Shown here: piece by piece, positions 4,147 through 58,002 of the stretch
Layout of the letters: the number at the start of each line of letters is the position of its first letter
Numbering within the stretch: the first letter of the stretch is position 1
Assembly (NCBI GenBank): GCA_951406725.2
Contig: OX597821.1
Span: 111,538,001-111,602,000, forward strand
Length of the DNA: 64,000 nucleotides
Source: Octopus vulgaris
Taxonomy: Eukaryota
Direction of reading: 5' to 3'
Notes under the pieces: model-generated
The model's input: the letters and a program-made list of their open reading frames with translations, nothing else
Databases searched by the model: none
Told to the model about the DNA's origin: nothing
Position numbers and translations under genes: made by a program

Positions 4147-5083
4147 TATGTTTGACTTTTGCTTTATGTCTGTACAAGTTGGCTCCAAGTCTCACCCAGA
4201 GACCTCAAGAGACAACAAGTTGGAAGTTCTGTGCCATATATTTGGTATTTTTTTCTTTTTCTTTTCTTTTTTTGTGTTGTACTAGTGAATGTCTAATACA
4301 TAAAAACAAAAAATAAATAAATAAATAAAAAGTTTGTTTTAAACCTTGGGATTACATAGAGAGTATTTTGCGTAGGATATGAGCAGTTCCCATGAGCACT
4401 ATCTTTTGAATTTCTGCCATTTTTGGGTTTCCTGGTATCTGAGTTAGGTAGCAATCAGTCCCTTTCGCTATCATTCCCAGGGCACCTATGACAACAGGTA
4501 TTGTTTTAGTCTTCAGCTTCCACATTTTGCTGATTTCTATTTCAAGATCTTTATATTTGCTCAGTTTTTGGTAGGTCTTGACAGATACGTTTATATTGAT
4601 TGGGACAGTCATATCAATGAGGAGGCATGTTCTTTGTCTGAAGTCTTTCAATATAATGTCTGGCCTATTTGCATCTATCTTCCTGTCAGTTTGAATGGTG
4701 AAGTTCCAGAGGAGTGAGATGTGGTCATTTTCAAGCACAGGAGGTGGATTGTGTTCCCACCAGTTTTTTTCATGGGGCAAATCCAGGTTTTTGCAAATTA
4801 CCCAGTGAATATATTGTGCAGCTCTATCATGCCTACTGAGGTACTCTGTAGGCGCTAGAAGACTGCATTTGGAGACAACATGGTCAATGGTTTCATTTTG
4901 TTGTCGGCATACACGACATGTTGGGCTACTGCCGTTCTTTAATATGTTGGCCTGGTAGTTTCTTGTTGGTAGGCATTGATCTTGAGCTGCTATGATAAAC
5001 CCCTCAGTTTCAGATTTTAAGCCAGAGGCCATTAGCCATTGATGGGTCAGGGCTTTGTCGATATCTGCATTATTCGCTCTCTT
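4146..5083 (-). mobile_element. 5'-truncated R4/Dong-clade non-LTR retrotransposon in (TAA)n
   Basis: 3' UTR plus C-terminal ORF, with (TTA)n on both sides. Confidence 0.9.
4352..5083 (-). pseudogene. C-terminal ORF fragment: CCHC zinc knuckle plus restriction-like endonuclease (REL)
   Basis: ETEGFIIAAQDQ, CRVC...ETIDHVVSKC, RHD, RPDII...LLIDMTVP, KLSKYKDL, IPVVIGALG; open frame of about 243 aa, no RT domain. Confidence 0.9.
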
Positions 5084-5091
5084 TATTATTA

Positions 5092-6027
<936 letters not shown>

Positions 6028-15728: not shown

Positions 15729-15729
<1 letters not shown>

Positions 15730-16281
15730 GAGGGTGAGTCAAAAAGTAATGCCATTTTGTTTAGGACAGGTATAATTACCAACACAGGAACATGTATCAT
15801 ACATCTAAATGAAGCTTGTCCTATGTGGATCACATCTCTACTTCACAACATAGTCACCGTTTCTCTCAATAGCAATGTTCCACCTTCGAATGAGAGCATG
15901 TATTCCTGCCCCGTAAAGTTCTGTTGACTATCCTTTGAGCCACTTCTTCACTACAAAGTCAAAGAGACAACACCTTCTTTCGAAGGCTCATAACAGGTGA
16001 TGAAACATGGGTTCATCATTATGAACCAGAATCAAAGAGGCAGTCAATGGAATGGCGCCACTCTACATCACCACCACCGAAAAAGTTCAAGACGCAAAAG
16101 TCAGCTGGAAAAATCATGGCGACTGTCTTTTGGGATGCTCAAGGTGTCATTCTGGTCGATTTCTTGCCAAATGGAAAAACAATAAACTCATAATAAGCTT
16201 CATTTTGATGCATGATTCATGTTCCTGTCTTGGTAATTATACCTGTCCTAAACAAAATGGCATTACTTTTTGACACCCTCG
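15729..16281. mobile_element. Non-autonomous mariner derivative with ~90-bp inverted ends
   Basis: CGAGGGTG(AG)TCAAAAAGTAATGCC TIRs and TA TSD; internal ITGDETWVHHYEPESKRQSMEW...KIMATVFWD on + (15960-16190). Confidence 0.9.
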
Positions 16282-17376
16282 TATATATATTCAAAGATGT
16301 TTTTCAAGGGTTATATAATCTTGGCAGTTACCGTGTTTCCTCTTAGATCGGTTTTATACGCCGGTTAACCACAACTGATGCACTAGATTCTGGAGCCGTC
16401 TTGAAGCTGAAAGCGGTCCTTTGAGTACACAGCCATAAAAAGGTCGGCATTTCCTGATTTCTTAAAACACATTTATTTTTGAATGGAATGTTATGTTTAA
16501 TTTTCCTTTTGTGCAAACTATCAACTCCGAGGTTTTAATCTAAGGCTGATTCAAACGCGTATACCAGAATAGCAACAATAGTGAATAATAATTCCTTGGG
16601 GATGACACAAAATTCTACTTAGGTCCTTTAAGAAAGATGTGAAATACGTGAACTCTTATTCTCCACCGAATTTAGTAGGGATTAAACAAGGATTATCATA
16701 AGCTGATCCAATTCATACACCTGATTACGAAAGGTCAGGTAAAAACAATTGAACTATTTATCCTCGTATTTTAGTGGATAAATAAATAAATAAATACTTA
16801 GAAATTTACTTAACATTTAATCTTTAATCATACAAGTATACAAATGAAACTTTTGTCATCTGCCTTTGCCTGAGAAAGAAGCTGACCGTGTTTTGTTGGC
16901 GAAAGTGATTTGTCGGTCAAATTCGGATCGGTATAGTTTATTTATAGGTAGTTTATTTGGTCAACCTTCGATGGATAGAAATCAAAGTTGGTTTAACGAT
17001 CAACCAAATCAGAACGTTTTTTATGTTCAGTAGTAAATTATTGGGTCCGTGGAATTGAAAAAGGAAATCTTCCTCCATAGATTTTGCTATATTTTAAAGA
17101 AACTATACACATTTAAATCTTAACTTTAAGGGAAAAAATTCCCTCAGAGATAATAAGAATATAATATATATGTGTATGTGTATGTGTGTTTGTGTGCATA
17201 TATAGTATATATATATGTGTGTTTTATACATAAATATTAGAGAGTGACCACTATGTGGTTCACTCTAGTGCTAAAAATAGCTCCGCTAATGGTATAGCCG
17301 CTAAAAGTTGTTTTCAAGAAGAAATACCACTACATTTAACGTAAGGTAAGTGAAACACAACAAAAAAATAGATTAA

Positions 17377-17449
17377 CCCTGAACAATTGTTTCATTATTA
17401 ATGTAATATGCAATTTTACTTACATAACATCCATAAATCTTCAGCAGAG
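17377..17449 (-). ncRNA. Type I hammerhead ribozyme-like fold
   Basis: Helix I CTCTG/CAGGG, core CTGAAGA, long helix II (TTAT/ATAA, ATGT/ACAT, TATGTAA/TTGCATA), GAAA, palindromic ACAATTGT, GUU site; U-U at 10.1/11.1. Confidence 0.7.
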
Positions 17450-17520
17450 GTTTGTCTTAAATACAATTTATTAAGTCGCAGCGAGCGTCAAATACACGTG
17501 TGGTTTAATCAATTGTATTC

Positions 17521-17582
17521 GTAGTTATGATTCAAATTTCCCCGCCAAAAGAGCGATAAGACTTACTGGAAACGAGTACTGC
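17521..17582 (+). ncRNA. Degenerate hammerhead-like motif
   Basis: GTAG/CTGC helix I, decayed core TTATGA, GAA-ACGAGT-A. Confidence 0.4.
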
Positions 17583-17782
17583 ATCAAATATTTACTGCAG
17601 TATAATTAAATTTATTTTTAGCACTAGATATTTTTAGCACTAGAGTGAACCACATAGTGGTCACTCTAATATTTATGTATAAATTTGTATTTTTCCCTTG
17701 GTTTTTATGTGCTAAGCCACTTGGTGTTAAATTGATGGTATTATTAAATTAATATCAAATTTTTCACCCTCATTTATAAATG

Positions 17783-17830
<48 letters not shown>

Positions 17831-20152: not shown

Positions 20153-20318
20153 ATGAGAGAGAAGTGACCAATACATTGTATGATATACCGGTCATTGAGA
20201 CTGAATGTTTGCCTCGCAACTCGCCATCTTGGTCAATAGGTGGGACTTTATCTAGAGTTCGCAGTGTTGTAAAATTCATGTCGCAAGTTAAACATTCAGT
20301 TGATATTATATATTTATA

Positions 20319-20657
20319 CAGGGTGTCCCAAAAAAATGCATACACACTTTAGCAGCTGATAACTCAATTGATATTTTTTCTTTCCAGATGAAACCTATAG
20401 GATTTAATGATGGCAGTCAGATTAAGCTTTGAACAAAGAAAATTCATTCTATTTTGAAAATGAAGTGTCTTTTAATAAACAATTGTAAAGTAGTTGTTTA
20501 TTAAAAGACACTTCATTTTCAAAATAGAATGAATTTTCTTTGTTCAAAGCTTAATCTGACTGCCATCATTAAATCCTATAGGTTTCACCTGGAAAGAAAA
20601 AATATTAATTGAGTTATCAGCTGCTAAAGTGTGTATACATTTTTTTGGGACACCCTG
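20319..20657. mobile_element. Palindromic Tc1/mariner MITE
   Basis: CAGGGTGTCCCAAAAAAATG termini and TA TSD; ~165-bp arms with few mismatches and a loop under 10 nt. Confidence 0.92.
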
Positions 20658-20660
20658 TAT

Positions 20661-20845
20661 ATAGTTGAAATTTGCCAAAATGAAAACAAAAAACAAAAAA
20701 CGAAGACAGGGGTATAAACAACACACAGGTATATTAGATTAACGCTCGGGATGGTGAGAAAGTCTTTTACGTTTCGAGCCTATGCTCTTCAACACGAGGA
20801 AATAAAAAGAGAGAGAATAATAAAAAAAACTTAGTGGTTAGCGAG
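20661..20845 (-). mobile_element. Family E repeat
   Basis: Homologous to 803-972; minus strand GTGTTGA-A-GAGC-atag-GCTC-GAAACGTA-AAAGAC. Confidence 0.7.
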
Positions 20846-21740: not shown

Positions 21741-21751
21741 GTATATATATA

Positions 21752-21944
21752 TATAATCAAAATAAGCAACAAGTATATCCAAGGTAGAGTAGTACAATTG
21801 TTTCATGCTACTCTACCTTGGATATACTTGTAGCTTATTTTGATTATAATCACCCCATTTGATTTATATGGATAATACCATACAAAATTCTGGTGCCTTT
21901 AACTTAAGTACCATATTCATCTGAATCTAAATTTTGCTGAACTT
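21752..21944. mobile_element. (TA)-flanked hairpin-plus-tail insert whose loop is a hammerhead 3' half
   Basis: 41-bp arms 21752-21792 and 21808-21848 (1 mismatch); loop on minus reads CATGAAACAATTGTA. Confidence 0.7.
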
Positions 21945-22009
21945 ATATATATATATATATATATATATATGCGTCTGTGTGTATGCATGTATGTGTACGC
22001 GTGTTTTTG

Positions 22010-33109: not shown

Positions 33110-34671
33110 ATATGGAATAGCACTCCGTCGGTTACAACGACGTAGGTCCCAGCAGATTCTATCAACGGAAGAGCCCTGCTCGTGAAATTAATGTGTAAGC
33201 GGTTGAGCACCCCACTCCACAGATGCGCGTAGTAGCCTTTACGTAGTTCTCAGGGAGATTCAACGTGACGCTGAGTGTGACAAGGTATTGCTCATTTTTA
33301 TCAGCTGAGTGGACTGGAACAACTTGAAATAAAGTGTCTTGCTCAAGGACACGACGCGCACCCAGGATTCGAACTCACTACCTTACGACTGAGAACCGAA
33401 TACCCTAACAAATGAGCCACGTGCTTTCAGTAACACACACGCGTGCCATATGCAATACGATATTATAGACCGATTTCGGGTGATTTTACGAATCGGTGTT
33501 GTAAAGACTATAGTATTGTGGGACTATCAGCAGGGAAAACTGCTGCAACAGATTTGGGATTAAGATAAATTGGCGTGAATAGTGAGTTGTTTCCCTTGCC
33601 GATGCTACTTCCGGATAATGAAATCTTTTAAAGCTCACGGATCGCTTCTCCGTTATCTTTTACTTGTTTCAGTCATTATACTGCGGCCATGTTGGGGGTA
33701 CCGCCTTAGAGATATATGAGTCGAATGAATCGACCCTAGTACAAATATTTTTTCTTTTTCTTTAAGCCTGGTACCTAACCGCTAAGTCATGGTGACTTTT
33801 TTGTTAACACGTGTGCTTAAGAAACTCGCTTTGCAATTACTTTGTTCCCACTTTAGCTCCACTGCGCGACATTTTGGGAAATTATCTTTTACTATAGCCC
33901 CGAGTCGACCAAAAACAAAACTGAGAGTGAATTTCGTAGGCGAAAACTATATAGAAACTCATCGTGTATGTGTGTATGTGGTGTGTGTGGGTGTGTGTAT
34001 CTTTGTGTATGTGTGCGGCTTTGTGTGTTTGTCCTCCACCAACGCTTAACAACCGGTGTTGGTTTGTTCATGTCACAATAATAACGGTTTGTCGAAAGAG
34101 GCCGAGAGATGAGTACTGGGACCAATCTGTTCGACTAAAACCCTTCGAAGCAGTGCCCCAGCATGGCCACAGTCAAATGGCTGAAAGAAGTTAAAGACTG
34201 AAGATGAAATATGTTAATGATCGATGTGATATTATCGAAAGTCTTTCCTAAAAGAAAGGCCTTCACGACTCTTGTCCATTGTCTTCGTCGTCTCCACTAC
34301 TCTTACTGTTACCAACAGGAACTCCATCGACTACATTTTTTTCCTTTTATATAGAGTTGGTATCTCGAGTAATCCCACAACTGAGTCAGCCATTCTCGAG
34401 GGAAAAGTTGATAGGAGAGCAATAAATATACATAAACACACACACACACATAGATAAATAAAGAAATGGAGTTAAACGCAAGTGTTATTCAAATCTTTAT
34501 ACTTCTGACATATGTTTCAAAGAAAACATTGGTATTATTCAAGAGGGAACAAAATGATGTAAAACAATGCGATCTCCTCATCAGGGGAAAAAAAGGAACA
34601 ACACACACATCAATAAGCCATTTTAACCGAATGTGATAACTGCGTATATGATGAAGGGAACGCTGACAAGT

Positions 34672-34705
<34 letters not shown>

Positions 34706-34707
34706 TA

Positions 34708-34923
34708 CGAGTGAGTGGACAAACGAAAGAAGGGCACTCAACCAATTTATTGGGACTTACATGTATGGATCAAAACAGTATGATTCAAATTCATTGGTAC
34801 TCTTGAGTTTCAAGCGCGATACTAGTCGTCAGCCATTTTGAGTTCAAAACAGAAGACGACTAGCATCAAGCTTGAAAATCAAGAGTACCAACGAATTTGA
34901 ATCATACTGTTTTGATCCATACA
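34708..34923. mobile_element. Microsatellite-flanked hairpin-plus-tail insert carrying a hammerhead fold
   Basis: 69-bp arms 34762-34830 and 34855-34923, with several mismatches. Confidence 0.7.
34795..34835 (-). ncRNA. Type I hammerhead ribozyme-like fold
   Basis: TGG-CTGACGA-ct-AGT-atcgc-GCT-t-GAA-ACTC-aa-GAGT-A-CCA. Confidence 0.6.
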
Positions 34924-36532: not shown

Positions 36533-36985
36533 GGCGGTGCCCCAGCATGGCCACAGCTCATAAGCTGAAACTAGAATCAATCAATCAATCATATACATTT
36601 GTATATATATATATATACATATATATTTGTGTGTGTATATATATATATGCATATATATATATATTTGTATATATATATATGCATATATATATATTTGTAT
36701 ATTATATATAGATATATGCGATATATGCATGGTTGAGTGTGTGCACGTGTGTGTACCTTTGCATCTGTTTTTGTGCCCTTCATTCCACCGTTTGACAACC
36801 GTTGTTGGTTTCCTTACGTCCAAGTAAATGGGCGGTTCGGCAAAAGATACTAGTAAAATATCTAATAGGCATATAAAAAAAGGAGTAGTGGGGTTGATTC
36901 ATTCGACAAAAAACTCTTGAATGCGTTGCTTGAGCATGGTCGCAGTTTAATGACGGAACCAAATAAACGATAAAAGGTATATGTA

Positions 36986-37037
<52 letters not shown>

Positions 37038-37046
37038 GTATATGCA

Positions 37047-37114
<68 letters not shown>

Positions 37115-37174
37115 TACATATACCTTTTATCGTTTATTTGGTTCCGTCATTAAACAGCGGCCATGCTCAAGCAA

Positions 37175-37262
<88 letters not shown>

Positions 37263-39835: not shown

Positions 39836-39999
39836 CAGCATTGTTGCTCATTTGGATAAACCTTGTTTTAAAATTAATTTGACATAATTTAATTTAGATT
39901 ATTTACGTATCACAGTTATGCAATTATACATTTGGGAGAGTTAATGTTAATGAAACAGCTGTTGAGTACAACTGTAATATGAACTATATGGGAAATTTA

Positions 40000-44398: not shown

Positions 44399-44607
44399 AT
44401 AATAAATATTAGGGAATGAATCCAAAATTACAGGGAAAAATCAGATTTAGGGTTAAATCCAATTTTATAGTAAAATATTATATAATATAATTCGAGACAA
44501 AACCACTATTTTAAAATCAAACAAGGTTTATTTAATTTATATTAAAATTTTATGTATTGATTAAGTCTTTCCTTGTTTGATTTTAAAATAGTGGTTTTGT
44601 CTCGAAT

Positions 44608-44617
<10 letters not shown>
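44395..44617. mobile_element. (TA)-flanked tail-plus-hairpin insert
   Basis: Perfect ~47-bp arms 44480-44526 and 44571-44617 with an ~85-bp one-sided tail. Confidence 0.7.
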
Positions 44618-44678: not shown

Positions 44679-45700
44679 AGGCCATTGAGAATGAAATGTC
44701 CGATTTTGAACTGAAACTTTATTTTACTTTATCTCAACAAAAAGCAATGTAGTTAAAGTATGCACCTAAACTATCAACACAATTTTGCCATTTTATCGGT
44801 ACCTTATTTATGCCGAGAGCGAAGAATTCTGAAGAGCAAGAGTTGATAAAATCACGAAAGGTTGTTTTTGCATCTTCTTCAGATTTGAAGTTTTCCCTTG
44901 CAAAGAATTATCTAATGCCCGGCAAACATGATGGTCAGTTGGTGTAAGGTCTGGTGAATATGGTGGATAACAGTGTATTTCCAAAGTTCAGTTCCTGTAA
45001 CTTGAGTAGCGTTCTTTGTGCAACATGTGGTTGAGCGTTGTCTTGCAAGAGAACTGGCCTGTCTCTGTTGACCAATCTCAGTTGTTTAATTGCATGTTCA
45101 CTCATCATTTTATCCAGTTGGTTGATGTTTACATCCGTTGTAATTGACTTACCAGGTCTCATGGAGCTGTAGTGGATGGCACCAGCGATGGACTACCAAA
45201 CAGACATTATTAGCCTTTTTTGGTGAATATTCTCTTTTGGATTATGTTTTGGTACTTCGTCTCCATCCAACCACCGTGCGAGAACGCTTGCTATTGTTGC
45301 AAAGAATCCATTTTTCCTCACACCTAACAACACGAGGAAAAAATGGTTCGCTTTTATCCCGTGACAGCGAAGAACAACAAGTATCGAGACGACGTGTCAC
45401 TTGATGCTCGTTCAGTTCGTATGGTAACCACTTGTCCAGCTTCTTTACCTTGCCGATTTGTTTCAGATAGTCCAATATAGTTGGAATCGAAACCTCAATC
45501 CTTGCTGCTAACTCACGCGTGGTTTGAGATGTATCCGCTTCTACTACAGCTTCCAGCTCATCAATATCCACCTTGATCTCAGGTTTAGTACGGGTTTCAT
45601 TTTCATGAGTAAAGTCACCAGATCGGAACTTCTCAAACCATCGCCGTACAGTGTGCTCATTCGCCTCATCTTCACCAAACACCTCATTGACGTTTCGAAT
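44677..45700 (-). mobile_element. Decayed mariner transposon
   Basis: TVRRWFEKFRSGD, KKLDKWLPYEL (WVPHEL-like), CEEKWI, LLQDNAQPHVA; frameshifted. Confidence 0.9.
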
Positions 45701-45854
45701 TTTTTTTTATCTATCAAAGAGTTCACAAAATTTGATTTACAAGAGAAAACTCACAATATAATCAGACACCATGAATTGCATTTCGAAAAGTGATTATGTC
45801 AGGATAAAACAGAGTTAAAGACTGTCAAAGAATGACCCGATATATATGTATGTA

Positions 45855-46333: not shown

Positions 46334-47068
46334 ACACTACAATTATGAATAATAGTATATTAAATTTCGAGGTACTAGAAGACATCATCTCAACTCAGTA
46401 TCAGAGGGAGCTAAAGCCGTTACCAGTATCACCAAATTCAAAGTGTGAATGAAAGTTTGTGTCACCAACCCCCTCCCACCAGCGTGCAGCCAAGACAAGA
46501 TGTTGTGGTCATTTACTGGGATGAAAAATGGTTATCAGTAATAATATAGGGTGAAATTAATTAATTTGGAATAATCATTAATTTCACCAAGTAGATTTCG
46601 GCATGTAAAAGCCTCATTCGAGGAAAGTTTAAGTAATACTAAGTAATTAAGGGTTTAGCAACGATTTGCCTCACCACACACCGAGTTTAGAAATAGCAGT
46701 CAAAGAGTTATAGCTATTCTTTCTACTAAAAGGGAGATCTCAGTAAAACTTAATTTCGAAACATACGTCCGTAGGTGACTTAAAATTGTATGATAGATTG
46801 CCGTCATTTCTTTCTCTCTTGCCTGTCTGTGTTTGCCTTTCAAGTGCTGTGGTTTTACTGAGATCTCCCTTTTAGTAGAAAGAATAGCTATAACTCTTTG
46901 ACTGCTATTTCTAAATTCGGTGTGTGGTGAGGCAAATCGTTGCTAAACCCTTAATTACTTAGTATTACTTAAACTTTCCTCGAATGAGGCTTTTACATGC
47001 CGAAATCTACTTGGTGAAATTAATGATTATTCCAAATTAATTAATTTCACCCTATATTATTACTGATA
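46253..47068. mobile_element. Young 5'-inverted hammerhead retroelement in (TA)n
   Basis: 217-bp inverted repeat 46533-46749 / 46852-47068 (1 mismatch); 22-bp inverted repeat 46253-46274 / 46744-46765. Confidence 0.8.
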
Positions 47069-56831: not shown

Positions 56832-58002
56832 GAGAGAGAATGAAAGAGAGAAAGGGGAACTGAAGAGGGTGACAAGAGACTTTCATAAAAAATTAAAATG
56901 TCGTATTTTATTCTTGAAAATATTTTATGCATTGTTTCTATTAGTTAAATTAATTTCTATTTAAAAATTATGAAAATGAACTTTCTGTTTGGTTGATGTG
57001 ATTTAATAAGCTAAAACCATTTGGTGTTATTTATTAAACCCTCGGAGAATTCTGTAAAAATCGTTGTCATTCTTGTTCCAGCAATTGTATCTTCTCTGCC
57101 TTCTTTCAATGGCCACGCTACGATTTTCTGATGGCTTCTGTAAACCATCATTAGCTATTTTAAGCCATTGCCTGCCATGAGCCCAATTCGGGGAGTCTGC
57201 TAAAAACAGTCTCACTGTCGGTTGTTCGTTGTATTTAAAGTGAATTGCTTCTGTATATTTGAAGAGGCGTGTTAAACAATATTTAGTAATTAAAGTTTGT
57301 CATTATTAGCTCTGGCTAATTCTAGAGGACATTTTATGTCATAAATCGGAATTTTTGAACTACAAAAATATTGACTGTTTTGAAAAGATATTTTTTTTTT
57401 TGCGTTTCCCATCTATATCCTTCATTGATATTTCATACACGTTCGCATTTGATACTATAGTTTCAAAACAAAAATAAATAAATAAAATGTTTATTATTGC
57501 AATTGAAAAGAAAAGGATAAATATGTTTTCAGCGAATCTCATTTGGGGACTTTTCGAATAAGTCATATATGAAGAAAATTTAAATACTGTATATAATTTT
57601 AACTCCTAAGACACCTAGCAAAACCCAAAAATATGAATAAAAAAATTTGGCAGTTAATGGGCTACATTGGCCCGGCACTACGCCGGTTATGACATCGAGT
57701 GTTCCAACCGAACAGCCTGTTCGTGAAATTACCGTGCGTGTCACTGAGCACTTCACAGAAGTTCGAACCTTTAACGTAGGTCTCAGGGAGATTCAGCGTG
57801 AAATAGAGCGACAAGACTGGTCACCGGGAATCGAACTCAGAGCCTTACAGTCGTGAGACGGATACACTAACTGCTAAGCCAAGCGCCTTCTCTTTTTAAA
57901 TATAGTCCTTATTTAGTTTCGTTTCAGGCATTGGGCAGTGGCCATGCCGAAGCACCTCCTGTATGTGTGTGTGTGTATGTGTGTTTACACGCACACGCAC
58001 AC

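Follow-up and report, generated by a model that had tools for sequence, protein, structure and literature searches.

Penelope-like elements are retrotransposons that, in textbook form, have an inverted, 5'-truncated copy beside the main copy, carry a tail at just one of their ends and insert into microsatellites. Hammerhead ribozymes have been kept in most of their clades, and what these ribozymes do in vivo, and how active they are there, has been called "still a mystery" (PMC7761336). In the Hydra clade, the hammerheads follow the pattern ctga(t/a)ga(t/g)..(c)a-tgaa-ac..gt-H, the elements target (TA)n, and one member, Hydra-1_Obim, is listed for Octopus bimaculoides (Craig 2021, PMC8557442); the passages of that paper examined here do not relate breakpoints to the hammerhead cut. 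According to the sections consulted of a study of Poseidon from Anolis carolinensis (PAc), this element nicks both strands of AT-rich DNA in vitro, its reverse transcription starts in vitro from two internal sites that lie downstream of where the hammerhead cuts, and the ribozyme is aided by the element's protein (Frangieh 2024, PMC11167929). The same sections report that ribozyme-dead RNA inserts normally, with uncut RNA being the dominant substrate, that no RNA-seq reads begin or end at the cut, and that genomic ends lie at the priming sites, none of them being given as a 5' end at the cut (PMC11167929). Retrozymes, a further hammerhead-bearing group, are described as forming monomeric and circular RNAs in vivo (Cervera and de la Pena 2020, PMC7229834; Li 2026, 10.64898/2026.07.22.740005), and minimal animal hammerhead variants cleave poorly, as dimers (PMC4209133). 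In the portions of the literature covered by our search, we found no study mapping the inversion points of Penelope-like elements to the hammerhead cut.

Here we describe an inverted insertion at 21752-21944 of a 64-kb window of Octopus vulgaris DNA (the window being the whole stretch analysed, 64,000 nucleotides), which is very probably the relic of a Penelope-like retrotransposon. Its stem of 41 bp encloses a loop of 15 nt, and one arm continues as a 96-nt tail; it has (TA)n on both flanks and contains no ORF; the combination of inverted copy, one-sided tail and (TA)n target is an architecture already known for Penelope-like elements. Positions within the element are counted from the predicted hammerhead cut, with +1 as the base after the GTA triplet, so that the short arm runs from -15 to +41 and the long arm from +1 to +137 (Table 1).

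Table 1 Coordinates of the inverted insertion and its flanks within the window.
Feature	Position	Strand	Remark
Short arm	21752..21807	-	copy of -15 to +41, counted from the predicted cut; ends in (TA)n
Hairpin loop	21793..21807	-	putative type I hammerhead 3' half: helix II end, GAAA core, palindromic helix III, GUA triplet
Predicted cleavage site	21792..21793	-	between 21793 and 21792; position inferred from the hammerhead consensus
Long arm	21808..21944	+	inverted copy of +1 to +137; ends in (TA)n; 21808-21848 forms the stem with the short arm
96-nt tail	21849..21944	+	long arm only; layout as in Hydra consensus ends
Left (TA)n target remnant	21742..21755		adjoins (TCTA)n array; TATA overlap with arm end
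Right (TA)n target	21944..21970		read from sequence

The two strands of the stem (21752-21792 and 21808-21848) pair at 40 of 41 positions, and the sole mismatch (21768/21832) is due to an A at 21832 that is private to this copy, the left-arm letter, T, making up 99.5% of the depth in X1, one of the public runs described below. In a DNA pairing check, mismatch-free pairing ended exactly at 21792/21808, leaving the 15 nt of 21793-21807 as the loop. Read on the minus strand, the loop is CA-T-GAAAC-AATT-GTA and the plus arm begins at the very next base, as the initial annotation had it: its coordinates and letters for the loop and for the start of the plus arm at 21808 are right. Across the boundary between loop and left arm, the minus strand passes from CATGAAACAATTGTA into CTACTCTACC..GATTA and then (TA)n, and the plus arm opens at 21808 with the letters CTACTCTACC, so that the plus-strand homolog of the predicted cleavage site is the base preceding 21808. 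If the junction contains microhomology, the plus arm may in truth begin anywhere from +1 to +5. A MITE or fold-back DNA transposon was considered and rejected for the locus, as terminal inverted repeats at both ends are absent and the long arm extends 96 nt beyond its partner.

Within the loop, GAAAC-AATT-GTA brings together the GAAA core, the short palindromic helix III and the UH triplet of a type I hammerhead. These letters support a reading of the loop as the 3' half of a Penelope-type hammerhead, in which 21808 would be the first base after the predicted cut. The combination is rare by chance: GAAAC-palindrome-GTH occurs five times in the 64-kb window against 0.28 expected, and once with the CAT prefix against 0.017 expected (60 first-order Markov simulations). 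Neither strand of the 21752-21944 copy, which ends at -15, carries a CUGANGA core, and judged by its letters this copy is not itself a ribozyme. Rfam gave no hits at the gathering score, and with an E-value threshold no hammerhead appeared among the matches listed (150 of 410), which were microRNA, snoRNA and other repeat-driven matches. The helix III palindrome ACAATTGT had also been pointed out at 17383-17390, where it is indeed present as part of a 13-nt identity (17383-17395), but there it belongs to a different family: the triplet of the 17-kb hammerhead is GTT, and in a blastn comparison of the element arms no match was reported for the plus arm at 21 kb against the hammerhead-bearing arm at 17 kb.

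To place the element among its relatives, four public runs (X1 and X11, contigs; X22 and X23, raw reads) were aligned on the 137 bases of the plus arm (21808-21944), the loose ends of aligned records being limited to 30 letters and reaching upstream to -24. The alignment gave 2854 X1 contigs, 310 X11 contigs, 13 X22 reads and 2 X23 reads. Among the loose ends listed, GAA(A/C)C-GATC-GTA stands in the same register in 8 X1 contigs, 2 X11 contigs (with one extra letter in the register) and 3 X22 reads, and the loose 5' consensus of the 8 X1 contigs ends ..ATGAAACGATCGTA-CCACAT, its last six letters lying at +1 to +6. Between copies, helix III changes from AATT to GATC, i.e., the letters change while self-complementarity stays, and the triplet sits directly before +1. 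Loose ends at -24 start AGATG.., letters that would suit the last part of ctgaagag-atg or ctgaagat-g, the CTGA itself, and with it the upstream GTAG-CTGANGA expected by the initial annotation, lying beyond their reach. At the other end, 17 + 45 X1 contigs pass from near the family 3' end into TA repeats; the family seems to be large and to end in microsatellites. Its size is less readily stated, as a naive X1 estimate on the order of 10,000 copies (summed depth of 0.2-1.3 million in most bins, against 13-58 per listed contig) is depth-based and no true copy number, and it is inconsistent with the scarcity of matching reads in X22 and X23 (13 and 2, respectively, in 1,934 million letters each, all <95% alike). 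Depth drops towards 21808, but edge effects and divergence among subfamilies confound this trend. The alignment shows no strand-change joints; as it begins at 21808, this counts neither for nor against junctions at +1. The X11 contigs do not demonstrate transcription, because taking X11 for RNA is guesswork.

X22 and X23 also contain short tandem forms of the family end, with units of roughly 50-90 nt; the sole X22 tandem form showing the hammerhead half has GAAC for GAAA. A non-LTR retrozyme was rejected as the source of the locus, since head-to-tail units with a complete hammerhead are absent and inverted arms with half a ribozyme are found instead. DNA pattern scans for relatives returned no loci in viral sequences or prokaryote genomes and 0 and 2 loci in metagenomes, the latter two being chance matches in protein-coding-looking DNA of 51-52% GC (L001, L002). 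Generic Hydra-type motif scans gave 1, 11 and 28 loci. None of the 42 pattern-scan loci had a (TA)n run of at least four units or a complete hammerhead that included helix I, and the microbial, viral and metagenome collections thus yielded no relatives.

By resemblance, and independently of any ORF link, the copies apparently form a large, unlisted Hydra-like family. The 3' layout is similar: by manual count, Hydra consensus sequences finish at ~+35 to +47 or +88 to +116 past their own cut, against +41 and +137 here. In the PMC8557442 supplement, three short words of the 21752-21944 element and one of its relatives gave no matches; given that the end of Hydra-1_Obim also differs, we take this element to belong to another family.

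The window holds further insertions of related build. At 17223-17785, an inverted insertion in a microsatellite carries a complete hammerhead on the minus strand (CTGAAGA, GAAAC-AATT-GTT, with CTCTG/CAGGG as helix I) with ~45 nt between the hammerhead cores, a 100-nt tail on the plus arm, a 16-nt duplicated piece at the junction and a partner arm starting from +103; its hammerhead folds no better than shuffled sequences (z -0.66). The inverted insertion at 34707-34920 contains a minus-strand Hydra-type hammerhead (ATGG-CTGACGA..GAAAC-TCAAGA-GTA-CCAAT), and its inverted arm breaks within the CTGA core (-33). At 46536-47065, two 214-bp arms are 99.5% alike and the insertion is therefore young; its loop bears GAAAC-ATAC-GTC on the plus strand and ends at -20, with the partner arm at +83. 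A build with unequal arms between TA repeats at 44406-44616 has no hammerhead in its 44-nt loop. Decayed hammerhead-like motifs lie at 34505-34590 (-), 39950-39965 (+) and 57450-57535 (-), two of the three having ~60 nt between the CTGANGA-like and GAAAC cores, a long spacing as at 17 kb; long-spacer hammerheads of this kind may escape standard descriptors. At 36923-37177, a 55-bp repeat end is duplicated in inverted orientation across a (TA)n run.

Elements of other kinds are present as well. A near-perfect hairpin MITE at 20315-20661 (arms of 168 bp around an 11-nt loop, with TA next to its CAGGGTGTCCC ends) is presumably Tc1/mariner-like, and an element with 89-bp inverted ends at 15729-16281 we take to be mariner-like with a transposase-like remnant. 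A second transposase-like frame is presumed at 45242-45706, and 4352-5998 (-) is assumed to hold, in two neighbouring copies, the C-terminal portion of a non-LTR ORF that bears a zinc knuckle and a restriction-like nuclease motif.

The start of the long arm at +1 admits several causes, and the weights given to them here (run-off, chance or pausing, microhomology, an origin outside retrotransposition) are judgement and involve no computation. We hold run-off from a self-cleaved RNA to be the likeliest single cause, yet it does not command a majority, and the cleavage footprint claim as a whole is unproven. With arm ends assumed uniform over 100-160 bases, the chance of an exact +1 start is ~0.6-1% per arm. 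Since Poseidon, in the sections consulted, starts downstream of the cut and its protein aids the ribozyme, reverse transcription of a cut RNA would be expected to end at +1. Against the footprint, the evidence is a single junction that was selected because it matches, and ribozyme-dead Poseidon RNA is reported to insert normally, with no RNA ends at the cut (PMC11167929, in part). The short arm reads across the cut site, and therefore at least one template in the same event was uncut. Among the hammerhead-bearing hairpins in the window, the partner arm starts at +1 in one of four; the other values are +103 (17 kb), -33 (34.8 kb, counted by hand, the automated script having found no partner) and +83 (46 kb, where the hammerhead is a decayed 3' half only), and the hairpin at 44.4-44.6 kb was left out of the count for want of a hammerhead. 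None of three tandem junctions in raw reads restarts at +1 (they do so at ~+8 to +12, +13 to +16 and -14 to -23), these being supported by 5, 3 and 3 reads and possibly deriving from another species or satellite DNA. The initial annotation had placed the inversion boundary exactly at a predicted hammerhead cleavage site and had read it as a footprint of cleavage in vivo: the placement agrees with the loop register in relatives and with the Hydra-clade pattern, but three of the four window hairpins and all three tandems speak against cleavage as the cause of such junctions.

The same insertion could also have reached +1 by chance, or through pausing of the reverse transcriptase at the folded ribozyme, if 5' ends scatter around the hammerhead, which we consider unlikely though a serious contender. 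Arms do start near the ribozyme and off the cut, at -15 in the 21-kb element, -20 at 46 kb, and -33 and -57 at 34.8 kb, as does one X22 tandem that restarts at ~-14 to -23; the clustering is, however, partly a matter of ascertainment, since hammerhead-bearing arms are recognisable only if they start upstream of GAAAC. At least one exact hit among eight arm ends has a chance of 2-8% (7-22% with a 3-base tolerance), and the locus was drawn from a scan over very many windows, but only four partner arms are free to vary, for which the chance of an exact hit is ~2-4% (scaled from the eight-arm figure). Slightly less credible to us is a junction set by microhomology instead of cleavage. Here CTAC after the cut complements the 5' strand of helix I and apparently, in part, the helix II region (GTAC in relatives), such that two cDNAs extending past the cut could anneal there and then be trimmed. 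The X1 loose-end consensus has GTAC at -19 to -16 against GTAG at the junction (from the inverted arm), a 3/4 match in register that would arise by chance in roughly 7% of cases (an estimate); in many Hydra hammerheads a g precedes ca-tgaa, which by itself would shift the boundary to +2 (PMC8557442, in part), and R2 5' junctions are thought to arise by chance microhomology (PMC3774820, in part). The GTAC consensus, however, belongs to a different subfamily (8 contigs, agreement 0.72), where the match fails, at one position, the junction has kept the letter of the long arm, and a route via helix I proper would leave the whole core in the loop, from which it is absent. The same 3/4 match could equally explain trimming of the short arm after a true run-off. 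An origin outside retrotransposition is very improbable, be it as a fold-back DNA element, by template switching at (TA)n during replication or as an artefact of assembly. The hairpin MITE at 20315-20661 and the inverted duplication across (TA)n at 36923-37177 give it local precedent, and read and contig support is limited to the plus arm (21808-21944) and does not cross the junction. Yet the arms are unequal in length, one of them has a private substitution, the loop is a hammerhead half that other copies likewise carry upstream of this sequence, and the window has four further unequal-arm inverted insertions, each adjoining a microsatellite.

Our preferred reading, to which we give somewhat less than an even chance, is that the hairpin comprises two opposite, 5'-shortened copies of one repeat end of a Hydra-type Penelope-like element in (TA)n, with the +1 start deriving from hammerhead-cut RNA. 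In such an event, the element's endonuclease would nick both strands of the TA repeat and reverse transcription would be primed at two positions within the element RNA (+41 and +137). One cDNA would be copied from uncut RNA and stop at -15 within ribozyme helix II, while the other would stop at +1 by run-off from the self-cleaved 5' end, and the two far ends would then be joined head to head, probably via a few complementary bases. A broader proposition, possible but doubtful, is that Penelope-like elements reverse-transcribe hammerhead-cut RNA in vivo: a reverse transcriptase dimer would hold two RNAs, whose palindromic helix III would permit folding into a dimeric ribozyme; one of the two would be cleaved, the other left intact, and the cleaved one would give rise to insertions beginning precisely at +1.

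The footprint idea bears on the question of what Penelope-like hammerheads do in vivo, on which the sole reconstituted element is reported to have done without cleavage and to show no RNA ends at the cut (PMC11167929, in the sections consulted). If it is true, genomic 5' ends gathered at the cut in a peak one base wide would mean germ-line RNA cleavage, timed relative to reverse transcription, and the copies of the family would form a fossil record of germ-line ribozyme activity; such a peak would also suggest that cleavage aborts some insertions. Comparable genomic evidence for Penelope-like elements was not found in the portions of the literature searched. With the size that the family seems to have, 5' ends at the cut could be counted, and without a +1 peak 21752-21944 would be an ordinary truncated relic.

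Compared with known systems, as far as the sources were consulted, the locus shares several features with Hydra-clade elements such as Hydra-1_Obim and Penelope-1_HM: a (TA)n target, a type I hammerhead near the 3' end, a TA-rich point ~30-45 nt past the cut followed by a longer extension, and an inverted 5'-truncated copy, as listed for Penelope-13_HM (PMC8557442). It differs in its tail (96 nt against the 30-40 nt quoted in that paper) and in being a relic that lacks an ORF. With Poseidon PAc it would have in common two internal priming sites downstream of the hammerhead and nicking of both strands in AT-rich DNA, whereas cleavage in Poseidon is dispensable in vitro and RNA-seq ends at the cut are absent from the sections consulted (PMC11167929). 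Animal non-LTR retrozymes share the type I hammerhead, AT-richness and a Penelope-like link (PMC7229834; 10.64898/2026.07.22.740005), but in the parts of these sources consulted they consist of units repeated head to tail, each with a whole ribozyme, while the Octopus hairpin is an inverted pair with half a ribozyme. In R2, the cut made by an HDV-like ribozyme sets cDNA run-off and shapes genomic 5' junctions, and the footprint idea thus has a precedent (Eickbush 2013, PMC3774820, in part). The R2 ribozyme, however, lies at the 5' end and defines the full-length RNA (PMC3774820, in part), whereas the cut described here lies near the 3' end, so that run-off would yield only a 137-nt stub.
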